DNA of 64,000 nt from Lapillicoccus sp. (GTDB lineage Bacteria > Actinomycetota > Actinomycetes > Actinomycetales > Dermatophilaceae), in the NCBI RefSeq assembly GCF_039935575.1, contig NZ_JBDTKA010000111.1:903-64902 (forward strand). Reading direction: 5' to 3'. Position 1 is the first letter of the stretch. Each line of letters opens with the position of its first letter. A program made the translations under genes and the position numbers. The notes below the pieces were generated by a model. It saw only the letters and a list, made by a program, of their open reading frames with translations. It was not told the DNA's origin and did no database searches. This document shows, one piece after another, positions 46,161 through 60,017 of the stretch.

Positions 46161-47009
46161 TCACCACCTCGACGTCGCTGCCGCCATCAGGTCCCCGAAG
46201 AGCTCGCCGTCGTCGACGGGATATCCCCGCCGAGTGAACCAGTCGGCCATGTTCTTCGCGTCGCGCTCCAGGAACTCCGGTCCGTGCGGGTTGCCGATGA
46301 TGTCGACGATCTGCGGCCAGTCGATCACCACGAGCCGCTCACCGTCGAGCAGCACGTTGTAGGGCGAGAGGTCCCCGTGCGCCCACCCACGCAACGCGAG
46401 CGTCGTCATGGTCTCGCGCAGCTGCTCGAACAGCTCGGGCAGCAGGTCGGCGGGGGGTCTGGTCTGGACCAGTCGAGGGGCTGCCTCGCCGTCCTGACCG
46501 ATGAGCTCCATCAGCATCTCGGTGTCGCCCAGCTGGACGGGATAGGGCACGGGCAGCCCCATCTCCCAGAGCTTTCCGAGCGCGTCGAACTCGGCCATGG
46601 CCCACTGTCCAGTGATGAGGGCCTTGCCGAACTCGGTGCGACGTCCCATGGCCCGCATCTCGCGACTGCGCCGCACCCGTCGGCCTTCGAGATAGCCGGT
46701 GTCTCGGTGGAACATCCGGTGTTCGGCGCCGCGGAACCGTTTGGCGGCCATCAGGACGTCCTGGCCCGGCTGGTCGGGAACCCAGCGGCGCACGATGTGG
46801 ACCTCCGCCTCCTTGCCGGACTTGAGCACGCCGAGGTCGGCATCGACCGCGCCGAGGGCGGTGACGACCCAGTCGGGTCGAGGTTTCGGGCCGTGCATCG
46901 ACCCGTCCCACGAGGACCACTGGTCTCCTGCGGGCGGTCCGTCGGGCTTGCTGTCAAGCGCGAACGACGCGATGTCCCAGTCGTCGGCGGATGGTGTTGC
47001 AGGTGTCAC
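46161..47009 (-). CDS. RIO1-family atypical serine protein kinase
   Basis: LKSGKEAEVHIV (ATP-binding loop/Lys region), MELIG hinge-like segment, catalytic HGDLSPYNVL and metal-binding VVIDWPQ motifs. Confidence 0.8.
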   Translation of the reverse strand: MTPATPSADDWDIASFALDSKPDGPPAGDQWSSWDGSMHGPKPRPDWVVTALGAVDADLGVLKSGKEAEVHIVRRWVPDQPGQDVLMAAKRFRGAEHRMFHRDTGYLEGRRVRRSREMRAMGRRTEFGKALITGQWAMAEFDALGKLWEMGLPVPYPVQLGDTEMLMELIGQDGEAAPRLVQTRPPADLLPELFEQLRETMTTLALRGWAHGDLSPYNVLLDGERLVVIDWPQIVDIIGNPHGPEFLERDAKNMADWFTRRGYPVDDGELFGDLMAAATSRW

Positions 47010-47276
47010 TGTGGATCTCCAGAGCTAAGAGGAACGCGGGGCAGAACACACCCAGGACAGTCGTCGACATGTCACTCCTCCTCGGATCGATCGCAGCAGG
47101 GCTCGAGCGTCTCGGATCGCAGCTCTGGCGCGCAACCGCTTTTCCCAACCTGTGTATCCGCGTCTGAGCTACGACCTCCTTGTGACGAACCGGTTTTGCG
47201 CAATGTGCCGCTCTACACGCCGGTGAGGTGCACGCTAGGTGTCCTCACTGGCCTTCACCCCGGCAGGAGGCGACAG

Positions 47277-50200
47277 GTGGCGACGACGTCGTTCGCTCGC
47301 GGGCGGTTGCGTGTCACGCACCCGGTGACCTACCGCGCCACGAGCGTGCGCACGCGAAGCCGAGGGATCGACGGGACTACTCCCCAGGACGTCGATACGG
47401 TGGTCGTGAACACGTTGCGGGACAACGGGTTCAACCAGGTGCAGCGGGTCGCCATCACGTCGGGCACTGGTCGTGGTCTCGGTGACCGAGGGCTGCGGGC
47501 TCGTCCGCGCCCGGCCGCCGTCACGATCGCTCTGGACGTGGCCGATGACGAGGATGCCGTGGTCCTGCTCGAGACCGGTGGCTGTTACTCGTGGGTCCTC
47601 CCGACGCACGAACCGCGGCCCCGCAGCCGCGGCACGGACCGGGCGTTGTCCGGCCGGGTGGCGCGGTTCGACATCAGCATCGCACCGACCTCCGGGGCAG
47701 CCGAACGCACGCGAGTCCGTGACCTCGGCTGGCCGACCAGCAGTGCCGGAGCCCGTGCAACCGTGCTGTCGTTCGCGGCCGGCGCCCTCGGCGACGCCGC
47801 GATACGCCTGCTGGAGAGTCGGGTGGAGCCGGGGTTCGTGCACGTGACCTCCGCCGATCCGAGCGGGTGGACGCGCGTCGACGACCTCGCGGCCGTGGGT
47901 CTCGACGCCGCCCGCCCCAACCGCGTTCTGCTCCTGGTCCACGGAACGTTCGACTCGACCCTCGGCGCCTTCTCCGGCCTGGCCGCCACCGCAGAGGGGC
48001 GTGCCTTCCTCGAGGCGGCGGTCGAGGCATACGACGCGGTCGTCGGTTTCGACCACCGCACCCTCAGCGTCGACCCTTTGGCCAATGCCACCGACCTTGG
48101 GCAGCGACTCGTCGCCCTGGTCGCCACGGCGCCGGTGACGCTCGATGTGTTGTGCCACAGCCGCGGTGGGCTCACGGCACGAAGCTTCGCCGAGTCGGTG
48201 CTGCCGGGCCTGGCCTGGCGGGGTCGGGTGGACCGGGCAGTGTTCGTGGCTGCGACGAACGCCGGGACGCACTTCGCCGACGCAGATCGGTGGAAGGACC
48301 TCGCCGACCTCTACACCAACCTCGTCTCGGCGCACGCCCGAGCGCTCGCCGCCGTTCCCGGGGGCGGAGTGCTCGCCGACGCGGCCGTGTCGGCGATCAG
48401 GGGCATCGGCGCTCTCGTCAGCTGGCTCGCGTCCTACGCGACAGCGAGTGGGAGCGTCCCCGGCCTGGCGGCGATGAACCCCGACGGCGCGTTCGTCGAG
48501 ACGATCAACCAGGACCAGCCTGGGCAGCCGCGTCCCGGCACCCCGTGGTTCGTCGTCTCGTCGGACTTCCATGCCACGACCGCCACCAGGCCCGAGGAGA
48601 TCCCCGCCGAGGTTTTCAGCCGCCTCGTCGAGGGGGTCGTCGACAAGGTGTTCGACGGTCCGAACGACCTGGTCGTCGACGATGCGTCGATGAGCGCCAT
48701 CGACCTGCCGCACGGTGGGGGATATGTGCGCGATACCCTCGCATTGGGAACGAATGCTGTTGTCTACCACACCAACTACTTCTCACAACCGGTTGTGGCC
48801 AAGGCCCTCCAGTCCTGGCTCGTCGACCGGCTCGACAGCCTCGACAGCCTCGACAGCCTTGACACAGCCTCGGCTGGGCCGCCTCCGAACCGTGTCGAAC
48901 CACCTCTGGTCCCGCCTGAGCAACCGCACCAACGGGGGCCGGTCGCGGTCGAGGAGCGACTGCCGGACGGCTGGCAGCCCTCGTTCCCCACGAACGCCGA
49001 GCCGCCGGACGAGTCCGCGACGCCGACGGTCCGGGCGCGGCTGCGGGCCGAGATGCCCCTTCATCCGACGGTCGGCCTCAGCGTCTCGGTCCGGGTCCGG
49101 CTGTCACGCGGCCCACTCGACGCCGCCACAGGAACGGCCTCGCGGCAGACGGTGCTGACCATCCGGCCCGAGATCCCGGTGTCGATCCAGCTGGTGCCGT
49201 CGACGAACGCCGTCCTCGAGGACGAGGACCTGCGGCTGGTCCTGCTCCAGCCAGGCATCGCCTCGTCGGACGTCACTTTTGCGGTGCACGCAGTCGCGGT
49301 CGGGCCGGTACGCGTACGCGTTCTCGCCCGACAGGGAGCGGAGCTGCTCGGGACGCTCGAGCTGGCCACCGAGGCGGTCTCTGCTGCGGTCGCCGCGGCC
49401 GCCTCCGACGCACCGGGGGGACGACAAGCGGTGACCCGCGGTCAGGTCGAGATCGCGAGTAGCACCTCGCCAGTGCTGGCCGACACACCGTGGCTCGAGA
49501 TCTCGCAGATCCAACGCGGTGGCCAGACCCACTTCCAGTACGAGCTGCGCATGCCCGGCGCCGACCTCTCTTCCACCGACCATCGGCTCACATACGAGTC
49601 CGCGGACATCGGTGACCCCGAGGCGTTCGTCTCGAACCGGATCAAGGAGGTGATGGCGCTGTGGTTCGACTACTCGACGGCACCGCGGACCTACCTCGCC
49701 AAGCTGCAGGACCTCGGCGCCGCCCTGTTCGAGCAGCTCTTCCCCCAGGAGATGCAGCGGTTCCTCTGGACGAACCGAGGCAGGCTCGAGGGCCTGTTCC
49801 TCCTCACCGACGAGCCGTTCATCCCCTGGGAGCTCGTGCATCTGAAGCCCGCCACCGGCCCACGCCAGAAGGCGCCGAGGTTCCTCGGCCAGCTCGGGCT
49901 TGTCCGGTGGCAGTTCACGCCTTTTCCGGCGACGGCGACCCTGCGGGCCCGGCCCGGGGAGGTCTTCGCAGTCTGTCCGGACTACGCCGACGACCGGAAC
50001 GACCTGGACCAGGCCGGGCTGGAGAGGGCCTTCCTCACCGCCACCCTCGGCGCGACCGAGGTCACGGCGACCGAGGCCAAGGTCCGCGCGCTGCTGCGGC
50101 GCCGGGGGAGCTTCGACCTGTTGCACTTCAGCGGTCACGGCGAGGCCGACGCCACCAACATTGCCGACGCGCGGATTCTGTTGGCCGGACGCCGGGTCGG

Positions 50201-50585
50201 GGACGCCCTGGTGGCCGACTACCTGTCGTCGACGACCGTCGCGGAGAACGCCCGCTTGTCCAGACGCGACGGTCCTGGACCGCTGGTCGTCCTCAACGCC
50301 TGTCAGGTGGGCCGTTCGGGGGAGGAGCTGACCTCCCTCGGCGGGTTCGCACGTGCCTTCCTGGAGGCGGGGGCCTCCGCGTTCGTCTCCTGCCTGTGGT
50401 CGGTCAACCAGGTGCCGGCACAGGCCTTCGCCGAGACCTTCTACCGTCAGCTCCTCGACGGACGGACGGTCGCCGAGGCGGCCCTCGCCGCACGCAGCGC
50501 TGCCCGGAACGGCGACCGCGGCGACGCGACCTGGCTGGCCTACGTCGTCTACGCGCGCCCCGACGCTGTTCTCGTCCGGGACTGA
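47277..50585 (+). CDS. 1102-aa multidomain protein: unassigned N-terminus, alpha/beta-hydrolase (lipase/PGAP1-like), Pro-rich linker, beta-rich middle region, C-terminal CHAT (caspase-fold) protease
   Basis: In-frame GTG 47277 of ORF 46128-50585, with aggagg ending 6 nt upstream; the upstream part of the ORF is antisense to the RIO kinase. LLLVHGTFDS and LCHSRGG (Ser295). CHAT dyad LLHFSGHGEAD (His954) and VVLNACQVG (Cys1009). Confidence 0.8.
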   Translation: MATTSFARGRLRVTHPVTYRATSVRTRSRGIDGTTPQDVDTVVVNTLRDNGFNQVQRVAITSGTGRGLGDRGLRARPRPAAVTIALDVADDEDAVVLLETGGCYSWVLPTHEPRPRSRGTDRALSGRVARFDISIAPTSGAAERTRVRDLGWPTSSAGARATVLSFAAGALGDAAIRLLESRVEPGFVHVTSADPSGWTRVDDLAAVGLDAARPNRVLLLVHGTFDSTLGAFSGLAATAEGRAFLEAAVEAYDAVVGFDHRTLSVDPLANATDLGQRLVALVATAPVTLDVLCHSRGGLTARSFAESVLPGLAWRGRVDRAVFVAATNAGTHFADADRWKDLADLYTNLVSAHARALAAVPGGGVLADAAVSAIRGIGALVSWLASYATASGSVPGLAAMNPDGAFVETINQDQPGQPRPGTPWFVVSSDFHATTATRPEEIPAEVFSRLVEGVVDKVFDGPNDLVVDDASMSAIDLPHGGGYVRDTLALGTNAVVYHTNYFSQPVVAKALQSWLVDRLDSLDSLDSLDTASAGPPPNRVEPPLVPPEQPHQRGPVAVEERLPDGWQPSFPTNAEPPDESATPTVRARLRAEMPLHPTVGLSVSVRVRLSRGPLDAATGTASRQTVLTIRPEIPVSIQLVPSTNAVLEDEDLRLVLLQPGIASSDVTFAVHAVAVGPVRVRVLARQGAELLGTLELATEAVSAAVAAAASDAPGGRQAVTRGQVEIASSTSPVLADTPWLEISQIQRGGQTHFQYELRMPGADLSSTDHRLTYESADIGDPEAFVSNRIKEVMALWFDYSTAPRTYLAKLQDLGAALFEQLFPQEMQRFLWTNRGRLEGLFLLTDEPFIPWELVHLKPATGPRQKAPRFLGQLGLVRWQFTPFPATATLRARPGEVFAVCPDYADDRNDLDQAGLERAFLTATLGATEVTATEAKVRALLRRRGSFDLLHFSGHGEADATNIADARILLAGRRVGDALVADYLSSTTVAENARLSRRDGPGPLVVLNACQVGRSGEELTSLGGFARAFLEAGASAFVSCLWSVNQVPAQAFAETFYRQLLDGRTVAEAALAARSAARNGDRGDATWLAYVVYARPDAVLVRD
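48831..48863 (+). repeat. in-frame 9-bp tandem repeat (ctcgacagc x3 plus partial) encoding LDSLDSLDSLD
   Basis: Direct reading of 48831-48863, inside the linker after the hydrolase domain. Confidence 0.85.
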
Positions 50586-50672
50586 CCTCGGCAAAACCAC
50601 TGCACCACACAGCTGTTCAAAAACTCAGTCATTCGGCTGCTCAGAAGCACGACTACACCGGAAGGACCCATC

Positions 50673-51524
50673 ATGACTGCTCGCGCCCTCTGTGTCGGGA
50701 TCAACGAGTTCGCCCACCTGCCCACCTCGAGCTGGCTGAACGGGTGCGTCAACGACGCGAACGACATGTCCGCGCTGCTGCTCACCCAGCCGGGCTTCAC
50801 CCGCCGCAACGTCACCGTGCTGGCGGATGCCGCGGCCACCAAGGCCAACGTCATGACGGCGCTGACCGACATGGTCGGCAAGGCCAAGGCCGGCGCCCTG
50901 GACCACGTCGTCTTCTCCTTCTCCAGCCACGGAACGCAGGTGCCCGACACCAACGGCGACGAGAAGGTCGACCACGTCGACGAGGCGTTCGCCTGCCACG
51001 ACATCGCCCAGAAGGGTGACGACTGGGACCGCGACACCGTGATCGTCGACGACGAGCTGAACGTCCTCCTCCAGGACATTCCCAAAGGCGTGCTCGTCGA
51101 GGTGGTCCTCGACACCTGCCACAGCGGGACGGGCCTGCGCGACATCGACCTGCTGTCGGGGCGGCGCCCTCGGTTCCTTCCTCCGCCCACCCGCAAAGGC
51201 ATCCTGCGTCTGGCCCCGAAGTCGGACCCCAAGGGCCTGCAGGAGCTGGTCAGGTCGACGCCCGCGGCCACGAGGGCGGTCCTGTATGCCGCCTGTCGCG
51301 CGGACCAGACCTCGGCCGACGCCTACTTCGACGGACGTTACAACGGCGCGTTCACGTACTACTTTCTCGAGGCGGTCAAGGGCGGCGGCTATCCGTCCCG
51401 GTCTGCTCTGATGACCGCCGTCAGCCAGGCGCTGCGCACCGGTGACTTCGAACAGCGCGCCCAGCTCGAGGCGTCTCAGAGGGCCAAGCGGTCCGCTTTC
51501 GGTGCACTGCCGGACGGGTCGTGA
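50673..51524 (+). CDS. caspase-like cysteine peptidase (Peptidase C14 / metacaspase-like), stand-alone
   Basis: ALCVGINEF...GCVNDANDM, FSFSSHGTQ (His86) and VVLDTCHSGTG (Cys149). ggaagga lies before the ATG. Confidence 0.85.
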   Translation: MTARALCVGINEFAHLPTSSWLNGCVNDANDMSALLLTQPGFTRRNVTVLADAAATKANVMTALTDMVGKAKAGALDHVVFSFSSHGTQVPDTNGDEKVDHVDEAFACHDIAQKGDDWDRDTVIVDDELNVLLQDIPKGVLVEVVLDTCHSGTGLRDIDLLSGRRPRFLPPPTRKGILRLAPKSDPKGLQELVRSTPAATRAVLYAACRADQTSADAYFDGRYNGAFTYYFLEAVKGGGYPSRSALMTAVSQALRTGDFEQRAQLEASQRAKRSAFGALPDGS

Positions 51525-51528
51525 CCCG

Positions 51529-52380
51529 ATGCCGCTCCTGAAGCACGCGTTCTGCCCGGGGTACCCGCCACCGTTCGACTCCCTCGTTGCGGACTACCCG
51601 GGTGAAGACGTATACCCGCAGAAGGACTTCCGCACCGAGTGGGGCCCGATCTTCCACCGGGGCCGTCTCGACGGCTCCGCCGTGGTGCTGGTCCTCGGGC
51701 AGGACCCCGCGACGCACGAGAGCGTCAGTCGCCGCATCCTCGTGGGTGAGGCGGGACAACGCGTGCAGGGGCTGCTCGCGAAGCTGGGGGTCGCCCACTC
51801 CTACACGATGGTGAATACGTTCCTCTACAGCGTCTACGGTCAGGGTGGCGGCAGCCGGCACGAGCACGACGAGCACATCGCGGACTACCGGAACCGTTGG
51901 CTCGACGCGCTTCTGGACGGCACCCGCGTGACGACCGTGATCACCCTGGGCATGCTCGCGGCGTCGGCTTACCAGTCCTGGCTGGGCTCCCGCCCGCAGC
52001 TGGCTGCGGGACTACAGCACACCGCCCTGCGACACCCCACCTATCCCGAGAGCGCTTCGGCCAGTGGCCAGAAGACGCTCGCCGCGGCCACCGAGATCCT
52101 GCTCTCCGACTGGAACGCCCACCTGCCCGAGCTGAGGTCACACGTCCAGCCAGACTTCCCTCCAACTGCGACGGTCTATGGAAACAGCTGGCAGGAGGGC
52201 GATCTCGCCCGGATCCCCCAGGCAGACCTGCCGCCCGGTTCGCCGGACTGGTGGTTCGAGCTGGCGGCGTGGGCCTCACGGACGGGCAAGGACACCCAGC
52301 TGAAACGCGCGACCATCCAGGTGGTCGTCCCCACCCGGGCGCGCACCTGGCCCGTCCTCACCCCGACCGGCGGGAGCTGA
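51529..52380 (+). CDS. uracil-DNA-glycosylase-superfamily (UDG-fold) protein of unclear family
   Basis: Internal ATG of ORF 51442-52380, 4 nt after the caspase stop. VLVLGQDPATHES (motif A position; Asp59) and ALRHPTYP (motif B position; His169). No Fe-S cysteine cluster. Confidence 0.6.
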   Translation: MPLLKHAFCPGYPPPFDSLVADYPGEDVYPQKDFRTEWGPIFHRGRLDGSAVVLVLGQDPATHESVSRRILVGEAGQRVQGLLAKLGVAHSYTMVNTFLYSVYGQGGGSRHEHDEHIADYRNRWLDALLDGTRVTTVITLGMLAASAYQSWLGSRPQLAAGLQHTALRHPTYPESASASGQKTLAAATEILLSDWNAHLPELRSHVQPDFPPTATVYGNSWQEGDLARIPQADLPPGSPDWWFELAAWASRTGKDTQLKRATIQVVVPTRARTWPVLTPTGGS

Positions 52381-52384
52381 CGCG

Positions 52385-53755
52385 ATGGCTTCCACCGGAA
52401 CGTTCGAACGCGCATACAAGCGCGGCGTGACGCGGCGGCAGGAACCTGCGCCGCGCCGCCCCCGGGCCTTGCCCCCTGCTCCGTTCTGCCTGCACGGCGC
52501 GGTGATCACGCCCGATGAGGCGTGGCCGAGCGGTTACGTCACCGTCGAGAACGGGGTCATTGCGACCGTCGGGAAACGCAAGCCGACCGGTGTCACGGTC
52601 ACCGAGACCGACGGCGTGATCCTGCCCGGGCTGCTCGACCTGCACGGACACCCGGAGTTCAACGTCTTCGCGGCCTGGGAGCCACCGAGGCTTTATGCCA
52701 ACCGGTACCGCTGGCGCGCAAGCACCCCGTATCGCGTCCTGGTCCGGGACCCGCAGAACACCATTCTCAGTACCCTGCCCCCGCAGACCCAGAGCCGGTA
52801 TGCCGAGATCCGCGCCTTGACCGCCGGCGTGACGGCGATCCAAGGGGCCTCAGGAGCCAGCACCGCTACGGCAGAACCGTTGGTACGCAACGTGGATCTC
52901 TTCGTGTTCGGTGACCACCGTGCCCGGGCCATGATCGACCTGCCCACGGGTTCGAGCCGCGACATGCCTCGGCTCAAGAAGATCGTGGCCGACATCGGCA
53001 CCGGTGATGTCGACGCCTTCTACCTGCACCTGTGCGAAGGCGTCCCGGGCGACGAACGCAGCGCCACGGAGTTCGCGAGCTTCCTGCACGCGGGCGCAGC
53101 CACCCCAGCGACCAACGTCATCCACGGTTCGGCGTTGTCCGAGACCGACCTGCACACGCTCGCCGACGCGGGGTGCCGGCTGGTCTGGTCGCCGCAGTCC
53201 AACCTGCGGCTCTACGGCGCGACGACATCCGCGGGCGTTGCGCGGCAGGCCGGTATGCAGGTGGCGCTCGGAGCCGACTGGTTGCCGTCGGGGTCGACCA
53301 GCCTGCTCGCCGAGATGAAGGTGGCGCGACGCCAGCTCGCCCTCCAGGGCCACCCGGTCACCGCGGCCGAGCTCGTAGCGATGGTCACCTCGGTGGCGGC
53401 GTCGGTCGCGGGCCTGTCAGCACATCTGGGAGCGGTTGCAGTGGGCCGGCCGGCGGACTTGTTGGTGCTCGAGCGCCATCACGCCGACCCCTACGAGAAC
53501 GTCTGCCTGGCGGACCCGTCGTGGGTGGAGCTCGTCTGCATCGGCGGCGACATCACCTACGCGCGGCAGGACTGGTTCGAGCGGCTGTCCGGCAACGCGC
53601 AGAGCGACACGATCGAGTCGCTGCTCGCATGGGGAAAGCCGATGCGGCTCGACAACGGCTATGGGTCGGGCCACCAGTCGCCGACCCCGTCGCTGTCGCA
53701 GATCCGGACCTTGCTCACGACCACCTACCCGCAGGTAGGTCCGATCTACGCCTGA
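52385..53755 (+). CDS. amidohydrolase-superfamily enzyme with deaminase-type motif set
   Basis: 4 nt after the upstream stop. LDLHGHPE (His87/His89), YLHLCEG (His215/Glu218), VIHGS (His247) and LGADW (Asp298). Confidence 0.8.
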   Translation: MASTGTFERAYKRGVTRRQEPAPRRPRALPPAPFCLHGAVITPDEAWPSGYVTVENGVIATVGKRKPTGVTVTETDGVILPGLLDLHGHPEFNVFAAWEPPRLYANRYRWRASTPYRVLVRDPQNTILSTLPPQTQSRYAEIRALTAGVTAIQGASGASTATAEPLVRNVDLFVFGDHRARAMIDLPTGSSRDMPRLKKIVADIGTGDVDAFYLHLCEGVPGDERSATEFASFLHAGAATPATNVIHGSALSETDLHTLADAGCRLVWSPQSNLRLYGATTSAGVARQAGMQVALGADWLPSGSTSLLAEMKVARRQLALQGHPVTAAELVAMVTSVAASVAGLSAHLGAVAVGRPADLLVLERHHADPYENVCLADPSWVELVCIGGDITYARQDWFERLSGNAQSDTIESLLAWGKPMRLDNGYGSGHQSPTPSLSQIRTLLTTTYPQVGPIYA

Positions 53756-53851
53756 CCTCTCTCACCACAGCACGCCTGATCGGGACGGAACCGTGACCTG
53801 GGGGCCGGGTCCGCGTCGCCGCCGCTGCGGGTGAGTCTGAGACAATCAGGC

Positions 53852-54427
53852 ATGAGCACGCAACCGAACGGTCTCCGCACGGTCCGATCCCGCCTCGCGC
53901 TCGAGTACCCGATGTCGCTGGGTATCTTCGAGAAGTACGAGGAGGCCCAGAAGACGGTGGACACCCTCTCCGACGCGGAGTTCCCCGTGCAGAACTGCCT
54001 CATCGTCGGCACCGAGCTCAAACAGCTCGAGCGGGTCACCGGACGGCTCACCTGGGGGCGCGTGCTGCTCGGTGGCGCGCTCTCCGGCATCTGGCTCGGT
54101 CTGTTCATCGGCCTGATCTTCGCGCTGTTCACCTCGCAGGGCAGCCCGGTCGGGATCGTCGTCGCGACGGTGCTCTTCGGCGCCCTCTTCGGTGTCATCT
54201 GGGGCGCCATCACCTACTCCCTCACCGGCGGTCGGCGCGACTTCAGCTCGGTGAGCCTCACCGTACCGAGCAAGTACGAGGTGCTCGTGGAGCACAAGCA
54301 CGCCCAGCGGGCCCGCGAGATCCTCGGCGCCGGCGGCCTCGGCGGGGCGTCTGCCTATGCCGCGCAGCAGGTCACGACGCCGGCCGCGGCTCCCGAGCAG
54401 GTGCCCCCGCCCGCCGGCTCGATCTGA
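53852..54427 (+). CDS. membrane protein with general-stress-protein-17M-like N-terminal domain
   Basis: LGIFEKYEEAQKTVDTLSDAEFPVQNCLIVGTELKQLERVTG, then two TM helices. ATG 53852 is chosen within ORF 53831-54427. Confidence 0.6.
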   Translation: MSTQPNGLRTVRSRLALEYPMSLGIFEKYEEAQKTVDTLSDAEFPVQNCLIVGTELKQLERVTGRLTWGRVLLGGALSGIWLGLFIGLIFALFTSQGSPVGIVVATVLFGALFGVIWGAITYSLTGGRRDFSSVSLTVPSKYEVLVEHKHAQRAREILGAGGLGGASAYAAQQVTTPAAAPEQVPPPAGSI

Positions 54428-54437
54428 GCGAAAGGGC

Positions 54438-55973
54438 TCAGCGGCCCCAGATCCGGGCGATCCAGGCCTCGACGTCGTCAGCCGTGCGAGGCATACCGGC
54501 TGAGAGGTTCTCGAACCCGTCGGCGGTGATGAGGACGTCGTCCTCGATCCGCACGCCCGTCCCGCGGAACGCCTCGGGGACCAGCTGGTCGTCGGCCTTG
54601 AAGTAGAGACCGGGCTCGACGGTCAGGATCATCCCCGCCTCGAGCACGCCGTCCTTGTACTCCTCACGCGTCGCCTGGGCGCAGTCGTGCACGTCCAGGC
54701 CCAGGTGATGGCTTGTGCCGTGCACCATCCAACGGCGGAACTGCTGGCCGTGCTCGGTGTCGAGGGCTGCCTCGACGTCGACGCCTTCGGGGAGAAACCC
54801 CCACTCGTGCAGGTGCTCGGCGATCACCCGGATCGCGGTGTCGTGGATCTCGCTGTACTTCACGCCCGGCCGCATCACCTGCATCGCCGCCTGCTGGGCC
54901 GCGTAGACGGCGTCGTAGATGGTGCGCTGCGTCTCGGTGAAGGTCCCGTCGATCGGAAGCGTGCGGGTGATGTCGGCGGTGAAGAGGGAGTCCACCTCCA
55001 CGCCGGCGTCGAGCAGCAGCAGGTCACCCTCCAGCACGTCACCGGTGTTCTTGACCCAGTGCAGCGTGGTCGCGTGGTCACCGCTGGCGCAGATGGATTC
55101 GTATCCGATGCCGTTGCCACTGTGCCGGGCGTGCAGGCCGAAGACACCTTCGACCCAGCGCTCACCACGACCGCGGGCCAGGGCCTCGCGCAGCTCGGCG
55201 ATGACCGCCTCGAAGCCTTCCTGGGTAGCGGCCACGGCCTGACGCATCTGCTCGATCTCGTACTCGTCCTTGACGAGCCGCAGGCTGGACAGGGCCGAGG
55301 CGAGCGCATCGTCCGCCTCGACGCGGGTCTGCTCTGCCGCCTCGACGGACTCCTCCGACTCCTCCGTCGCGGTGCTGCGGACCTCGTCGAGGGTCGCGGT
55401 GAGGTCCCGGTCGGCGTCCCGGACGACGCGAACAACGAGGTGTCCGGCGTCCTTGGCGACCGCGTCGGAGAAGTCGTCGATGTGGCGTGCGGTGATGCCG
55501 AACTCGGCCTCGATGTCCTCGAGCGTCGGCCTCGGACCGACCCAGAACTCCCCGTAACGCGAGTCGCTGAAGAACTCGTCCGTGTCGCGACCGCCCCAGG
55601 GCCGGAAGTAGAGGACGGCGTCGTGACCGCCCTCCTCGCGGGGTTCGAGGACGAGGACGGCGTCGGGTTCCTGGTCACCGCCGAACCCGGTCAGGTGAGC
55701 GAACGCGCTGTGCGGTCGGAACACGTAGTCGCAGTCGTTGCTGCGCACCTTCAGGCCCCCGGCGGGGATGACGAGGCGGTCACCGGGGAACCTGGCGCTG
55801 ATCGCCTCCCGACGGGTGGCCGCATACGAGGCGACCTCGGCCCGCTCCGGAAGCGTGGTCGAGCGCGGCGACCAGCCTGACGAGACGAAGGACCGCAGCT
55901 CGTCGGTGGTCGGACGGGCTCCGTTGAGGCTCTTCTTCTGTTCTTCGCTCACGGTCTCCATGGTGCCACTCAA
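54438..55973 (-). CDS. pepP: Xaa-Pro aminopeptidase (M24B, aminopeptidase P family)
   Basis: LLLDAGVEVDSLFTADITRT, HGTSHHLGLDVHD and GMILTVEPGLY...GVRIEDD metal-ligand blocks. Confidence 0.9.
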   Translation of the reverse strand: MSGTMETVSEEQKKSLNGARPTTDELRSFVSSGWSPRSTTLPERAEVASYAATRREAISARFPGDRLVIPAGGLKVRSNDCDYVFRPHSAFAHLTGFGGDQEPDAVLVLEPREEGGHDAVLYFRPWGGRDTDEFFSDSRYGEFWVGPRPTLEDIEAEFGITARHIDDFSDAVAKDAGHLVVRVVRDADRDLTATLDEVRSTATEESEESVEAAEQTRVEADDALASALSSLRLVKDEYEIEQMRQAVAATQEGFEAVIAELREALARGRGERWVEGVFGLHARHSGNGIGYESICASGDHATTLHWVKNTGDVLEGDLLLLDAGVEVDSLFTADITRTLPIDGTFTETQRTIYDAVYAAQQAAMQVMRPGVKYSEIHDTAIRVIAEHLHEWGFLPEGVDVEAALDTEHGQQFRRWMVHGTSHHLGLDVHDCAQATREEYKDGVLEAGMILTVEPGLYFKADDQLVPEAFRGTGVRIEDDVLITADGFENLSAGMPRTADDVEAWIARIWGR

Positions 55974-57754
55974 CCACCGCCGGCGGTGATGACGACGGCT
56001 TGGCGCACGGTCCGACCGCCCGCCTCAGGGCCGGCCAGCACCGTCGTCCGACCGGAGCCGAGGTCCTCGGTCACCAGCCGGTCGCCGTCATCGGCGCAGC
56101 GCGTCCCGCCGTAGGAGGCGACCCCGTCGACGACGGTGTTGAGCACGAGGCCTGCGGCAACCGGTGGCAGCGTAGCCGAGCGAACCGTCCCGTCCGGGCC
56201 GATGTCCGTCAGGCTCGTCGAGCACGCGTCGCCACCGCGCAGGACCGTGGTACCGATCGGTGAGGGCCACGCGTCGGAGAAACCGGCGCCGCCCACGGGT
56301 CGGGCGGCGGACCCGTCCAGGGGGCTGACGAACAGACGCCCGCCCGCCGACCTGCAGGCCAGCAGGACCTCGCCCCGGGACCACGAGGAGCGCGGCGTGC
56401 ACCCTGATGCGCCGGCGGGCGGAGGCAGGGTGGCCACCGCGTCGGTATGCAGGTCGACGAGCTTGATCTGGTCGTCGATCGTGGACACGACGGCCGTGTC
56501 CGTGGCGCGGTCGACGGCCAGTCCGGGCGTGCCGGGGCTGCCGGCCACGGGAGGCAAGGTGAACGGGTAGGTGGCCAGGAGCCGGCCATCCCTGCTCCGG
56601 TGGTCCAGCTGGACCGCCGCGTTCGAGTCCGTCCAGAGCATGAGGTAGCCGCTGTCCGGTGTGCCCGCATACCTCATCGTCTTCCAGCCGTAGGAGACGC
56701 CCAGAGGTCGCGAGGTGCCGGCGACCAGGTCCCACTCCTGCGGTTGGGCGCCCACCGAGAGCAGGACCCGGTGCCCGTCGCGGCTGACGTCCTGGATCAC
56801 GATCCCGTCGGCGGCGGTGCTGATCGGGTACCGGGTCCCGTTCGGGGCGGCGAGCAGCACCGTGGTCGTGATCCCGATGGCCGTGGCGGCGGTGGTCAGG
56901 ACGGTCCACCCCGGACCGACCTGGTCCCAGGGGATCGCCGAGCGCGGCTTCTCGTCCCGGGCCAGCGCCGGCGAGGACAACGGTTCAATGGGGGCCGTCG
57001 TCTCGATCGGGGGAGGTGGCGTGGCCGCAGGGGTACGCCGGCCGATGGCCGTAGTCACGGCTGCGACCAGGGCCACGACGACCAGTGTCGCGACCAGGGT
57101 GAGCCCCCGGCGTCGATGGGTCACCGTGATCCTGGCGTCCTCGGCCAGCACGTCGGCGAACGTGCTCCGCAGGTCGGTCGCGGCGACGGACTCGGCCCAG
57201 CGGTGGAGCGCCTCGTCGACTCGTTCGAGGGTCCGATCAAGGGTGGGGTCGTGTGCAGCGCTGTCGGGTGCAGACGGCCCGGTGGTGTGGAGGGTCGCCA
57301 GGGCGCGGTGAGTCGCCGCGGTGACCGCGGACTCGCGAACCCCGAGGATGACCGCCGCCTGACGGTCGTTCCGGGCCGCCCACAGCGTCAGGACCAGGGC
57401 CTCCCGCTGCGCCCGCGGCAGGGCGATGACCCGGTCCATCGTCGTCGGTGCGGCAGTCGGTGACGGCTCGGGTCGGGATCGCCTGTCGAGGCTGTGGGAT
57501 CGAGCGAGTCGACGTGACCCCGCGACGACGACGGCCTGGAGGGAGGCCAGCGCCGCACCAGGGTCGTCTCGGCCACCACCGCGCTGCAGCTGCAGGAAGG
57601 CGTCCTGGACGACCTGTTCGGCGCCGGCCCGGCTCTGGTCGGGAGGCAGGAGAAGCACCGCCAGGCGGACGAGCGAAAGTCGGTGGGCGCCATAGAGAGA
57701 CGCGACGTCGGTGCCGGCGATAGAGCGGGCTCGCATCACATGACCTCCCGCCAC
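55970..57754 (-). CDS. ECF sigma-factor domain fused in one ORF to a TM helix and a beta-propeller-like extracytoplasmic domain
   Basis: The N-terminal ~175 aa are paralogous to the sigma at 59424-60017 (LYGAHRLSLVRLAVLLL..VVQDAFLQL; region 4 LPRAQREALVLTLW...). TM helix GLTLVATLVVVALVAAVTTAIG. The C-terminus is paralogous to 58045-59427. Alternative start ATG 57736. Confidence 0.7.
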   Translation of the reverse strand: MAGGHVMRARSIAGTDVASLYGAHRLSLVRLAVLLLPPDQSRAGAEQVVQDAFLQLQRGGGRDDPGAALASLQAVVVAGSRRLARSHSLDRRSRPEPSPTAAPTTMDRVIALPRAQREALVLTLWAARNDRQAAVILGVRESAVTAATHRALATLHTTGPSAPDSAAHDPTLDRTLERVDEALHRWAESVAATDLRSTFADVLAEDARITVTHRRRGLTLVATLVVVALVAAVTTAIGRRTPAATPPPPIETTAPIEPLSSPALARDEKPRSAIPWDQVGPGWTVLTTAATAIGITTTVLLAAPNGTRYPISTAADGIVIQDVSRDGHRVLLSVGAQPQEWDLVAGTSRPLGVSYGWKTMRYAGTPDSGYLMLWTDSNAAVQLDHRSRDGRLLATYPFTLPPVAGSPGTPGLAVDRATDTAVVSTIDDQIKLVDLHTDAVATLPPPAGASGCTPRSSWSRGEVLLACRSAGGRLFVSPLDGSAARPVGGAGFSDAWPSPIGTTVLRGGDACSTSLTDIGPDGTVRSATLPPVAAGLVLNTVVDGVASYGGTRCADDGDRLVTEDLGSGRTTVLAGPEAGGRTVRQAVVITAGGG

Positions 57755-58044: not shown

Positions 58045-59427
58045 TCATCGCGACGGGTCGATGACGGCGAACTGGGCAACCGTGCCGCCGTTGGCCTGTG
58101 GGCCCAGCAGCATGCCCGAAGCGCCCGTGAGCACGTTGACGAGACCGATGCCGTCGCCCCCGACGCAGCCTCCTCTGGACGTGCTGTCGCTCGCCACGAG
58201 CACGTACGCCGAGTCGTTCACCACCGCCACGGGGTCGGTCCCGGCCAGCGCGTTGCCCACTCCCTTGAGCTCGGGACCAAGCGACCGAGGGGCGGAACTC
58301 CCGATCTGGATGTCGAGCGGCCCGTAGCCGCAGGCCGGAGCCTGCACGAGCAGGACGCCGCTGCTCAGCTGCCACGCGTCGACGTAGCCGCGCTGCGCGA
58401 GGGGGCTGGCCTGGGTGAGCTGCGCCGGCGGGCCGCCGGACACGGGATACAGCCAGACGTTGCTGACGTCGGTGCCGTCGCTCCTGGAACAGTAGACGAC
58501 GGCGCGCCCGTCACCCCACCATGACATCGGGAAGCAGCTGCCATAGCCACTCGGCGCCGGGAGAGAGCGCACGACGGCGCCGGTGGCGTTGCCCCAGACC
58601 GCGAGCCCCGCTTTGCCGTGCGCCACAACGAAAAGGCCGTCAGGGGTTTCGATTCCGGCGGCGCTACCGACGGGGAAGGTGAGCTGAAGGCTCCCGTCGA
58701 GGCCGCGTCGCTCCAGATGCCCTTGCAGCGAGTCGCCGCTCGTGTCGACCGAGTCGAGGAGCGCCTTCGCGGTTGGCTTCGAGTACCGGACTATGCCGGA
58801 GACCTGGGGAACCACGCGGGACGTGCCACTGGTGAGGTCCCACTCGGAGACGGCACGCGAGGCGTCGGGGGACTGGGTGAGAGCACGCCGACCGTCGGGG
58901 CTTACGTCGAGGAGCGCGACGTTGGTGGGGATCGAGGCGATGGCATACCGGGTGGCCGTCGGGCTCACGAGATAAAGCGTTCCGGTCTGGGCCGCTCGAC
59001 TCGATCCCCAGACGGCTGCGACCCAGCCGGGACCGACCTGCGGCCATGGGATCGACGAACGGGGCTGTTCCTGCGCGGCAATCGGGCCCGATGCAGTCGC
59101 GCCCCTCGTGCCGTTCGGCGTCGGCTGAGCTGAGGCCGGTGGCGTACCCGTCGGGTCCGGCGAGACGGTGACGATCTGCGTGGCGACGGGTGCGGGCGTC
59201 ACGTCGCCGTGCCGGCTGACCACCCCGATGCCCACGGCTGCCGCGGCGATCACGACAGCTGCGGCGGCCGCACCCATCCACGATCGCCTCGGGCCTCGAC
59301 CCGCTTCCCGCGCTGATCGCTGCAGCTCGTCGAAGGAGCGGGTCAGATCGTCCTCACGCACCTCGCTGGCGCGCTGGCCGAGGGCGCCGCGCAGGCGGCG
59401 CTCCCTGTCGTCGCCCGACGTCGTCAT
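58045..59427 (-). CDS. anti-sigma-like membrane protein with beta-propeller-like extracytoplasmic domain
   Basis: ATGA overlap with the upstream sigma gene. One TM helix (WMGAAAAAVVIAAAAVGIGVV). SSIPWPQVGPGWVAA...LLDVSPDGRRAL resembles TolB-like repeats. Confidence 0.7.
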   Translation of the reverse strand: MTTSGDDRERRLRGALGQRASEVREDDLTRSFDELQRSAREAGRGPRRSWMGAAAAAVVIAAAAVGIGVVSRHGDVTPAPVATQIVTVSPDPTGTPPASAQPTPNGTRGATASGPIAAQEQPRSSIPWPQVGPGWVAAVWGSSRAAQTGTLYLVSPTATRYAIASIPTNVALLDVSPDGRRALTQSPDASRAVSEWDLTSGTSRVVPQVSGIVRYSKPTAKALLDSVDTSGDSLQGHLERRGLDGSLQLTFPVGSAAGIETPDGLFVVAHGKAGLAVWGNATGAVVRSLPAPSGYGSCFPMSWWGDGRAVVYCSRSDGTDVSNVWLYPVSGGPPAQLTQASPLAQRGYVDAWQLSSGVLLVQAPACGYGPLDIQIGSSAPRSLGPELKGVGNALAGTDPVAVVNDSAYVLVASDSTSRGGCVGGDGIGLVNVLTGASGMLLGPQANGGTVAQFAVIDPSR

Positions 59428-60017
59428 CGCTGCTCCTCCAACAACCGCTCGAGCGCGTCCAATGCCCGGCTCGCTGTCGACTTGACGGTCCCCTCGGTGA
59501 TCCCCATGGCCTCGGCGATCTGTCGCTCGCTGAGGTCGCCCCAGTAGCGCAGCACCAAGACCTCTCGCTGTCTGGGCGGCAACCGGCGCACCGCCTCGAG
59601 CGTGGCGTCACGGGACTCGCCCAGGAGCACCTCGTGGTCAGCCGCCGCCACCTCGTCCGGTGCGCTCGCTCGGGCGAGGAAGCGCCGGACGGTGCCGCGC
59701 CGGCGCAACGTACTCCGCGCTCCGTTGACCACGGACACCCGCAGGTATGCCAGTGCCGCACCGGGGTCGTCCAGCCGGCCGGACCGCCGGTGCAGTCCGA
59801 CGAAGGCGTCCTGGACCACGTCCTCCGCGAGGGAGAGCTCGTCGACCAGCAGCACCGCGAGGCGCACGAGCGAAAGCCGGTGGGCGGCATACAAGGTGGC
59901 CAGGTCCACACCCGTGCGAGGCGCCGCGTCCACCGTTGTCCTCCCGCCGGTTGCCAACTGGGTGTGCGCCGCGCCGCTCTGCGTGGCGTGGAGGGCCCTC
60001 ATGCCTTCAAGACGCAT
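59424..60017 (-). CDS. ECF (group 4) RNA polymerase sigma factor
   Basis: Region 2 LYAAHRLSLVRLAVLLVDELSLAEDVVQDAFVGL and region 4 LPPRQREVLVLRYWGDLSERQIAEAMGITEGTVKSTASRAL. Confidence 0.85.
   Translation of the reverse strand: MRLEGMRALHATQSGAAHTQLATGGRTTVDAAPRTGVDLATLYAAHRLSLVRLAVLLVDELSLAEDVVQDAFVGLHRRSGRLDDPGAALAYLRVSVVNGARSTLRRRGTVRRFLARASAPDEVAAADHEVLLGESRDATLEAVRRLPPRQREVLVLRYWGDLSERQIAEAMGITEGTVKSTASRALDALERLLEEQR

Follow-up and report, generated by a model that had tools for sequence, protein, structure and literature searches.

The question raised by the locus described here is why a gene of the uracil-DNA glycosylase (UDG) superfamily and a gene for a deaminase-type amidohydrolase stand side by side, and whether their products act on the same base. 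The pair (Table 1) lies in a 64,000-nucleotide stretch of contig NZ_JBDTKA010000111.1 of Lapillicoccus sp. (the window; G+C approximately 70%). A preliminary description, made from the letters of the window, had proposed that the pair could deaminate a base and then excise the product, with DNA damage or restriction of modified phage DNA as the purpose, or that it is a salvage or repair pair unrelated to the proteases encoded next to it. Both open reading frames (ORFs) were recovered on the + strand at the positions given there, and proteins of 100% identity to their products had been called before in a metagenome-assembled genome (MAG) of Actinomycetota that is public (P0121, 283 aa; P0001, 456 aa). 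The GQDPATHE and RHPTYP motifs and the HxH/HxxE/H/D motifs were likewise all where they had been placed.

In the window, the UDG and amidohydrolase genes are translationally coupled: a Shine-Dalgarno-like GGGAG (52372-52376) precedes the UDG stop codon (TGA, 52378-52380), and 4 nt separate this codon from the amidohydrolase ATG at 52385. For the UDG-anchored scan, one genome per species was used, a relative of the UDG was present in 541 genomes, and the best 80 of the 541 loci were fetched; many of these are from related Actinomycetota, and ORF calling in the loci was crude. The co-occurrence that the preliminary description had proposed to compile was found to be nearly complete, as the amidohydrolase gene adjoins the UDG gene in 77 of the 79 informative genome loci (56 with the UDG gene first, 14 divergent, and 7 with the amidohydrolase gene first). 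Two loci (L053, 6541-13317, and L069) share the neighbourhood of the window, including PepP, YflT, acyl-CoA dehydrogenase, caspase, and CHAT genes; there the UDG gene alone is inverted, and the pair is divergent yet adjacent. The pair was also present in six of six distant lineages (Bradyrhizobium japonicum, Nitrosospira, Burkholderiales, Kofleriaceae, Thermoanaerobaculia, and one metagenome contig), and adjacency spans five phyla. In B. japonicum, the UDG is 91% identical to the crystallised Bradyrhizobium enzyme BdiUng (see below), and its gene overlaps the amidohydrolase gene by 4 nt. When metagenome loci were anchored on the amidohydrolase (at least 45% identity), 26 carried a UDG gene, 3 informatively lacked it, and 21 had flanks that were too short; some of the partners belonged to a second UDG subfamily (ASDPGPTE/PHPS, see below).

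An exhaustive profile search of 1.84 billion representatives yielded 963 UDG family members, 242 of them at E ≤ 1e-30. The best 150 included 19 long proteins; counted on 50%-identity representatives, nine of these were fusions with the UDG ahead of the amidohydrolase (the latter only partial in one of them) and one was a fusion in the reverse order. For fusion P0362, four sources gave 13 full-length copies, all on independent contigs; P0364 was seen on four contigs, and P0373 comes from a Phycisphaerales MAG at NCBI. All fusions retain the UDG motifs together with LHxH, HLxEG, and WSPxSN, GxDWxPSG fits the strict pattern in six of the eight full fusions checked, and the linkers are approximately 20-45 residues long and rich in Ala and Pro. 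Length alone is no proof of fusion: P0037 (745 aa) was a mis-called ORF in which the amidohydrolase is preceded by the C-terminal part of a UDG and runs on into downstream sequence. In-frame fusions in the Terrabacter-type loci were also rejected, a stop codon being present in every junction. Because adjacency is near-obligate, holds in three arrangements, and is accompanied by fusions in both domain orders, the two genes very probably form one functional unit, in agreement with the tight coupling noted in the preliminary description. Within the literature that could be searched, nothing was found on the pairing, blr0249, or DUF7362/7363/7379, and the BdiUng paper is silent on any neighbouring gene (PMC5449639). 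A conserved, sometimes fused pair with recurrent peptidase companions thus appears to be unreported.

The UDG-superfamily protein had been called otherwise unlike canonical uracil glycosylases, which had to be corrected. In a phmmer search of PDB sequences, it matched Blr0248 (BdiUng, 5gn2_A) at E = 1.5e-79 (residues 8-269 against 5-268), and the pairwise alignment gave 51% identity to this crystallised enzyme. The 2017 description of BdiUng introduced a new class of UDG, marked by GQDPA (Chembazhi et al.; PDB 5GN2; PMC5449639), and its pocket and catalytic residues are Q56, D57, P58, A59, E62, L69, G71, A73, M92, N94, and H168 (PMC5449639). The window protein is identical to BdiUng at 11 of these 11 positions in the pairwise alignment. 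Its motif A is GQDPATHE (residues 57-64, with Ala61 where family 1 has Tyr), its motif B is RHPTYPES (168-175; RHPTYP, 168-173), and its pocket Asn is N96. Across 40 UDG family members, Q58, D59, P60, E64, N96, H169, and G57 were invariant, and A61 was present in at least 90%. In place of the HPSPLS Leu loop, motif B is extended and polar (RHPTYPESASASG in the window, aligned to THPTWPESSAHDS). With its single cysteine, the protein has no 4Fe-4S cluster. The Pfam UDG model (PF03167) was matched at 33.2 bits (cut-off, 24.3). The AlphaFold2 (AF2) model (pLDDT 90.5) was aligned to 5gn2_A by Foldseek with TM scores of 0.87/0.90 and a root-mean-square deviation of 1.9 Å, UdgX and family 4 being next in the list (TM 0.4-0.6). 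The catalytic Asp, noted earlier as retained, and the catalytic His sit in an active site that matches the crystal structure, and the family-4-like fold with a C-terminal extension, typical of the BdiUng family, is also present in the window protein.

Two other identities were ruled out. Family 1 UNG is incompatible with Ala for Tyr, with HPTYPES for the HPSPLS loop, and with Met for the stacking Phe, and no Ung model was among the NCBIfam matches of the protein. Family 4 UDG and UdgX, which bind a 4Fe-4S cluster through four Cys ligands, do not agree with the single cysteine or with the scores obtained (TIGR03914, 24.5 bits against 189.95; TIGR00758, 17.7 against 125.3). By its sequence and predicted fold, the protein can clearly be placed as a new member of the known BdiUng family. 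It resembles BdiUng in its identity over the full length, the same active site, GQDPA, the HPTxPES form of motif B, the lack of an Fe-S cluster, and the C-terminal dimerisation region. The difference lies in the setting: BdiUng was published as a stand-alone enzyme, whereas here the family supplies half of an operon or fusion with an amidohydrolase, Bradyrhizobium included, and the window gene is also co-transcribed with two protease genes. Thousands of homologues were found for the UDG and for the amidohydrolase alike, with catalytic residues invariant across phyla, and the motifs are therefore far beyond chance. The second UDG subfamily has ASDPGPTE as motif A, retains the pocket Asn, has a classical PHPS motif B, and is likewise paired with the amidohydrolase. 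Divergent UDG-family members (among P0397, P0419, P0422, P0437, P0438, P0462, and P0455) include tandem UDG-UDG proteins, in keeping with the dimeric BdiUng, and some are fused to a helix-hairpin-helix (HHH_3) or Lamin-tail domain.

The amidohydrolase carries its metal-binding and catalytic motifs as HGH (87-89; H87/H89), HLCE (215-218; H215/E218), H247, and D298, and it matched Pfam Amidohydro_1 at 51.1 bits (cut-off, 25). In a 12-sequence alignment from four phyla, H87, H89, H215, E218, H247, and D298 were invariant, as were W98, W110, Y116, Y139, Q153, R168, W299, W268-S-P-x-S-N, and G-x-D-W-x-P-x-G, which are specific to the family. The family profile was searched against the PDB and retrieved AtzA (3.9e-26), 5'-methylthioadenosine/S-adenosylhomocysteine (MTA/SAH) deaminase (2.5e-24), guanine deaminase (2e-22), and the isocytosine/8-oxoguanine deaminase 7ww2 (2.6e-21), with catalytic residues in register with those of 4f0r/4v1x. 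The top Foldseek matches of the AF2 model (pLDDT 80, pTM 0.83) were the enzymes of the profile search, at TM of approximately 0.6 and 14-18% identity. In hhalign, E. coli CodA aligned with a probability of 94% and with all four catalytic motifs in register; mapping of substrate residues through CodA was dropped, as the alignment is ambiguous at the base-binding loop, near whose PQEG an invariant Gln-Gly element is found. As profile, fold, and CodA alignment agree with the invariant motifs, the protein is assigned to the deaminase/chlorohydrolase branch, as the preliminary description had proposed.

Within that branch, no known enzyme could be named. All 38 NCBIfam matches were far below cut-off (25-61 bits against 300-780) and covered the C-terminal half only, the best being guanine deaminase TIGR02967 (61.5 bits against 375.4). 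No curated equivalog cut-off was reached, which ruled out guanine, cytosine, MTA/SAH, 5'-deoxyadenosine, 8-oxoguanine, and aminofutalosine deaminases, AtzA/TrzN, HutI, and SsnA. The protein is, as judged from its alignments, a member of an uncharacterised subfamily of the mononuclear deaminase/chlorohydrolase branch. With the COG0402-type enzymes (4F0R/4GBD, 6OHB, 7WW2, CodA, AtzA/TrzN), it shares the fold, a (beta/alpha)8 barrel, the metal and proton-shuttle residues of HxH, HxxE, H, and D, which in this branch belong to strands 1, 5, 6, and 8, and P-x-SN-x-x-L, and it differs from them in the low identity and bit scores given above and in invariant residues of its own, including GxDWxPSG. 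To our knowledge, coupling or fusion to a DNA glycosylase has not been described for any COG0402-type deaminase or chlorohydrolase. Of the two subfamily placements proposed earlier, the one for the UDG was thus obtained and the one for the amidohydrolase led to no characterised subfamily. Clustering with a well-defined metabolic deaminase, with the same neighbour in many genomes lacking proteases, had been named as an outcome that would speak against a module; the pair does occur in many protease-free genomes, whereas clustering with a defined metabolic deaminase was not found.

More distant amidohydrolase relatives (33-37% identity; L139-L168), many from marine assemblies, form a separate clade without UDG genes and were set aside as evidence on the paired family. 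They are 790-1020 aa long, with an N-terminal Lamin-tail and sometimes C-terminal EF-hands (L148:3359-6112, L159:3296-6322, L150:3437-5797), adjoin CysS, thioredoxin, and S15 peptidase genes, and are probably secreted.

What the pair may do was approached through the published biochemistry of BdiUng, the one family member characterised in this way. The enzyme excises uracil (U), 5-hydroxymethyluracil (hmU), and xanthine (X), and not hypoxanthine or thymine; it prefers single-stranded DNA (ssDNA), has a narrow ssDNA groove, and requires pNUNN as the minimum substrate; it is a dimer held by its C-terminal region, and its pocket is enlarged at C5 (PMC5449639). Activity was measured at an approximately 320-fold excess of enzyme over substrate, 200 μM of a mimic of abasic-site DNA (AP-DNA) gave no inhibition, and an E. 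coli ung mutant was not rescued (PMC5449639). BdiUng was purified from E. coli with no toxicity reported and no rise in mutation frequency, and it was assayed as a stand-alone repair glycosylase without the amidohydrolase partner (PMC5449639). Because of this feeble activity in the absence of the partner, the true BdiUng substrate is probably yet to be found.

U, hmU, and xanthine are the deamination products of cytosine, 5-hydroxymethylcytosine, and guanine. Since the bases accepted are deamination products, and since the nearest relatives of the partner deaminate or displace substituents on such rings, we infer, as the favoured though tentative reading, a two-enzyme system in which a base is converted and the deaminated oxo base is then excised from ssDNA. 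The amidohydrolase would replace the exocyclic amino or N-substituted amino group of a cytosine- or guanine-type base by oxygen, and the resulting oxo base (U, hmU, or X type) would be cut from ssDNA by the glycosylase, whose pocket takes 2,4-dioxo bases. A single base would be handled by both enzymes in turn, and an abasic site would be left for base-excision repair. We favour clean-up or repair of aberrant or adducted amino bases over self-inflicted damage. The co-transcribed peptidases (CHAT and caspase in the window; present in about a third of lineages) suggest either a protein- or peptide-bearing substrate, such as base-peptide adducts, or a gating of the pair by a protease. It is quite unlikely, though conceivable, that the amidohydrolase works directly on ssDNA bases or on the base-peptide adducts left after proteolysis and hands its product to the glycosylase; the pair would then be a bifunctional convert-and-excise machine, serving the repair of N-adducted bases or DNA-protein crosslinks, or else acting as a protease-gated, DNA-destroying immune or death effector.

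The same logic is known from AID/APOBEC and UNG in antibody diversification and antiviral restriction of vertebrates, where the base made by deamination is taken out by a glycosylase of the UDG superfamily and an abasic site results; for the pair this likeness is an analogy. The AID/APOBEC proteins are zinc enzymes of the cytidine-deaminase fold with ssDNA as their substrate, and UNG is encoded apart from them, whereas the putative deaminase here has the amidohydrolase TIM-barrel fold and is genetically coupled or fused to the glycosylase. The deaminate-then-excise idea of the preliminary description is coherent in its chemistry, the bases taken by BdiUng being products of deamination; as to its target, no sign of the amidohydrolase acting on DNA or deoxynucleoside triphosphates was seen.

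The neighbours of the pair were heterogeneous, with 140 Pfam families among 147 non-redundant neighbour clusters. Peptidases of the unrelated families C14/CHAT, S8, and S41 were the only neighbours recurring across phyla, and a peptidase was found within 4 kb of the pair in 39 of 113 loci, about two thirds being without a protease. In approximately 27 Actinomycetota loci, a homologue of the window caspase lies directly beside the pair, and in about 20 loci the CHAT protein accompanies the caspase. A different C14 protein stands beside the pair in a Burkholderiales locus (L086, 6061-7908), apparently fused to an N-terminal alpha/beta-hydrolase (AHSLGS elbow; motifs judged by eye). In Kofleriaceae, an S8 gene begins 2 nt past the stop of the amidohydrolase gene; another actinobacterial arrangement (L001:3409-9112) has separate S8, alpha/beta-hydrolase, C14, HExxH protein, and patatin genes. 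In Nitrosospira, Cellulomonas, two actinobacterial MAGs, and a metagenome contig, the pair is directly followed by an S41 gene, and these S41 copies are 39-48% identical. P0385 has C14 and UDG domains in one chain; as it is a singleton, it may represent two merged adjacent genes. No signal peptides were seen by eye in the recurrent peptidases, BLASTP showed no similarity that would point to one N-terminal adaptor domain common to the S41, S8, and C14 proteins, and among the 147 neighbour clusters no conserved third gene other than peptidases was found (MFS transporters occurred in 4). The pair is thus able to dispense with proteases, yet peptidase companions recur; the C14 caspase and the CHAT protein are accessory genes, C14 being recurrent but not obligatory. 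The earlier alternative of a pair unrelated to the proteases holds in that these are dispensable, and it falls short in that they are the sole neighbours recurring across phyla.

Some further arrangements were recorded. A three-gene cassette of UDG, amidohydrolase, and S41 was seen in L084:8001-12349, L073:1107-5479, L078, L079:8001-~12000, and L128:4001-8569; in L128, the order is amidohydrolase-UDG-S41 and the UDG is of the ASDPGPTE/PHPS subfamily. An alpha/beta-hydrolase and a caspase-like protease lie beside the pair in three arrangements (window 47277-51524, L001, and L086), and in the window DUF7379 and CHAT are within one protein, followed by C14. The two-gene clusters common to L050 and L128 turned out to be an ordinary histidine kinase with a LuxR regulator. 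Genes for AlkA, Ogt, and an Ada-like regulator come right after the Nitrosospira cassette (L084:12440-14833), a DUF488-N3a protein gene comes right after the amidohydrolase gene in Thermoanaerobaculia (L087:6631-7017), and RecQ is encoded 5.6 kb from the pair in Bradyrhizobium (L083:522-2387).

The purpose of the pair was examined in its genomic context. The UDG was found in none of 2.9 M viral contigs and on none of 72,556 plasmids, and neither protein matched the PADLOC library (2023 version, older than Brig1). Approximately 10 of the 147 neighbour representatives matched any defence model; they were scattered, a few being MADS, TIR, or patatin models, and among the 147 there was no defence-island signal. 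In Terrabacter and Intrasporangium, the pair is embedded in stable housekeeping synteny, and in Bradyrhizobium it is widely retained (237 member sequences). DNA damage or phage restriction, put forward earlier as the purpose, thus gained no support from viruses, plasmids, PADLOC, or defence islands. Genomic context lends positive support to neither defence nor repair.

Several observations weigh against a pair that converts and then excises bases for repair. In 42.5 kb of upstream sequence, LexA-like sites (at most 2 mismatches) were seen 4 times with 4.08 expected, and PafBC (RecA-NDp promoter) motifs 0 times with 0.15 expected. No DNA-repair gene recurred among the neighbours, AlkA, Ogt, Ada, RecQ, DUF488, and RNase T each being found at one locus. 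We know of no amidohydrolase-fold enzyme of the deaminase/chlorohydrolase branch that acts on a base in a polynucleotide; the substrates of all its characterised relatives are free bases, nucleosides, nucleotides, or xenobiotics. Caspase- and CHAT-type proteases are usually regulatory endopeptidases, which a repair role does not predict, and the peptidase counts are raw, without a formal null model, with many of the loci phylogenetically related. Two Acidimicrobiia genomes (L065, L077) have the UDG without the amidohydrolase and are true exceptions, and three loci (L101, L103, L113) have the amidohydrolase without the UDG. Fusion and adjacency fit excision followed by processing equally well, and we infer the substrate type of the amidohydrolase solely from the specificity of its partner. 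Confidence in the order of deamination before excision and in a repair purpose is, for the pair as a whole, much lower than confidence in one functional unit.

That excision fits equally well as the first step leads to an explanation in which the amidohydrolase destroys an aberrant base once it has been cut from ssDNA, or in parallel its counterpart in the nucleotide pool, and so blocks its salvage and reincorporation. Such pool hygiene is known from 8-oxoguanine deaminase and isoguanine/cytosine deaminase, the characterised amidohydrolase relatives all act on small molecules, fusion or a common operon would let the product pass from one enzyme to the other, and 7ww2 among the profile matches and the invariant Gln-Gly element near the CodA PQEG loop (in an ambiguous part of the alignment) point the same way. 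We nevertheless consider this order unlikely: the UDG pocket is of the uracil type, sharing Gln, Asn, and His with family 1, the known products U, hmU, and X offer no exocyclic amine for hydrolysis, the deaminase would be idle unless the true lesion is another base or unless it opens the ring or trims a C5 substituent, and free uracil and xanthine are harmless metabolites. The small-molecule substrates of the relatives would also suit catabolism or detoxification of soil nucleosides, for example peptidyl-nucleoside antibiotics containing (hydroxymethyl)cytosine, by peptide removal, deamination to a uracil, and glycosidic cleavage, with DNA activity as a weak side reaction. The soil-dominated lineages, the weak DNA activity and poor AP-DNA binding of BdiUng, and the stable chromosomal locus are in line with this, and the association with peptidases and alpha/beta-hydrolases would be explained without regulators. 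It is distinctly improbable, however, given that BdiUng, with its narrow ssDNA groove, depends on flanking nucleotides (at least pNUNN), that helix-hairpin-helix DNA-binding motifs occur in fusions with divergent family members, that no transporter or further catabolic gene recurs (MFS in 4 of 147 neighbour clusters), and that caspase and CHAT are not typical catabolic peptidases.

The peptidases could instead belong to an immune or programmed-death effector, in which the pair attacks phage DNA with modified C, G, or T or the DNA of its own cell, producing abasic sites or an excised base that is turned into a signal, and in which peptidases and alpha/beta-hydrolases are the gate or the co-effectors. 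Bacterial effectors such as the gasdermins stand beside caspase-like, CHAT, or subtilase proteases that activate them, and the pair resembles these systems in being a conserved cargo flanked by interchangeable proteases (C14, CHAT, S8); it differs from them in that most of its loci are protease-free and that the cargo consists of nucleobase enzymes, not a pore former, and no cleavable inhibitory segment was identified in the pair. In favour of an effector are the cytosolic peptidases of unrelated families as the sole cross-phyla neighbours (39 of 113 loci), the alpha/beta-hydrolase and caspase-like protease recurring in three arrangements, the C14-UDG fusion or merged gene pair P0385, the enlarged C5 pocket of BdiUng, and the few neighbours that match MADS, TIR, or patatin models. 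Defence glycosylases of the UDG fold are known: Brig1 and Brig2 have widened pockets and excise modified pyrimidines (PMC11078745; 10.1101/2025.10.29.685425), and the 5-substituted phage uracils attacked by Brig2 are chemically close to the hmU accepted by BdiUng. Amidohydrolase-fold deaminases of RADAR act on nucleotides (PMC9994260). An effector is improbable all the same: proteases are missing from about two thirds of the loci, sensor genes do not recur, the UDG family was not found in the viral contigs or plasmids, neither protein matches PADLOC and only approximately 10 of 147 neighbours match any defence model, the synteny in Terrabacter and Intrasporangium is of the housekeeping type with 237 sequences retained in Bradyrhizobium, and BdiUng was purified from E. 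coli without reported toxicity or raised mutation frequency. Brig1 was outside the top 50 structural matches of the window UDG, and the Brig enzymes are single-gene systems with an enrichment near mobile elements and in defence islands, whereas the UDG family of the pair is chromosomal and has an amidohydrolase partner. Finally, the adjacency could be biochemically meaningless, with two unrelated enzymes travelling together. Five loci hold one gene without the other, and no direct experiment links both; yet the pairing holds through three gene orders and even where the UDG gene alone has been locally inverted, is found in five phyla, and includes fusions in both orders that keep both active sites. 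Because of the fusions, mere coincidence is scarcely credible.

The pair is part of a group of four genes in the window, all on the + strand, whose features are collected in Table 1. The caspase stop codon (51524) and the UDG ATG (51529) are 4 nt apart, and neither promoter-like sites nor + strand terminator-like sites were found across 46800-54600; LexA and PafBC motifs were absent from the upstream regions of the window operon. The start of the large CHAT protein is probably the GTG at 47277, judging from an upstream AGGAGG and the N-termini of homologues.

Table 1. Coordinates of the pair, its junction, and the co-directional protease genes in the window.
Feature	Position	Strand	Basis
BdiUng-family UDG-superfamily protein (by sequence and model), 283 aa	51529..52380	+	PDB phmmer, active-site identity, AF2 model/Foldseek
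Predicted deaminase/chlorohydrolase-branch (COG0402-like) mononuclear-type amidohydrolase, 456 aa	52385..53755	+	Pfam Amidohydro_1, alignment, profile vs PDB
Coupling junction: GGGAG, UDG stop, 4 nt, amidohydrolase ATG	52372..52387	+	Read from sequence
Caspase-like Peptidase_C14, 283 aa, SHG and DTCHSG catalytic motifs	50673..51524	+	Pfam PF00656 at 2.7e-26
Large protein with DUF7362, DUF7379 (alpha/beta-hydrolase, CHSRGG elbow), DUF7363, and CHAT protease (probable start)	47277..50585	+	Pfam matches

On the 3' side of the amidohydrolase gene, a YflT-domain stress protein is encoded at 53831-54427 (+), followed by a long ORF at 54438-55973 (-), labelled PepP without a domain scan; the YflT gene and the putative PepP are syntenic with the pair in the closest relatives only (about 10 loci). 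Further long ORFs on the - strand (55970-57754, 58045-59427, and 59424-60017) were seen as translations in the ORF list. The N-termini of 55970-57754 and 59424-60017 resemble those of extracytoplasmic function (ECF)-type sigma factors, and the 4-nt overlap of 58045-59427 with 59424-60017 suggests a sigma factor and its partner.

For the BdiUng family, these results mean that an orphan enzyme with feeble activity and no in vivo phenotype becomes half of a defined two-component system. The family is almost never alone, and the Bradyrhizobium enzyme was studied without its neighbouring partner. Should DNA prove to be the level at which the amidohydrolase works, it would be the first deaminase or dealkylaminase of the TIM-barrel amidohydrolase fold with that target, and the BdiUng family would acquire a real function. 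This would be a new fold for nucleic-acid base editing and would bear on DNA repair, phage-host conflict, and possibly base-editing tools. The link to caspase-like, CHAT, S8, and S41 peptidases may point to the repair of protein-DNA adducts or to protease-controlled DNA damage.

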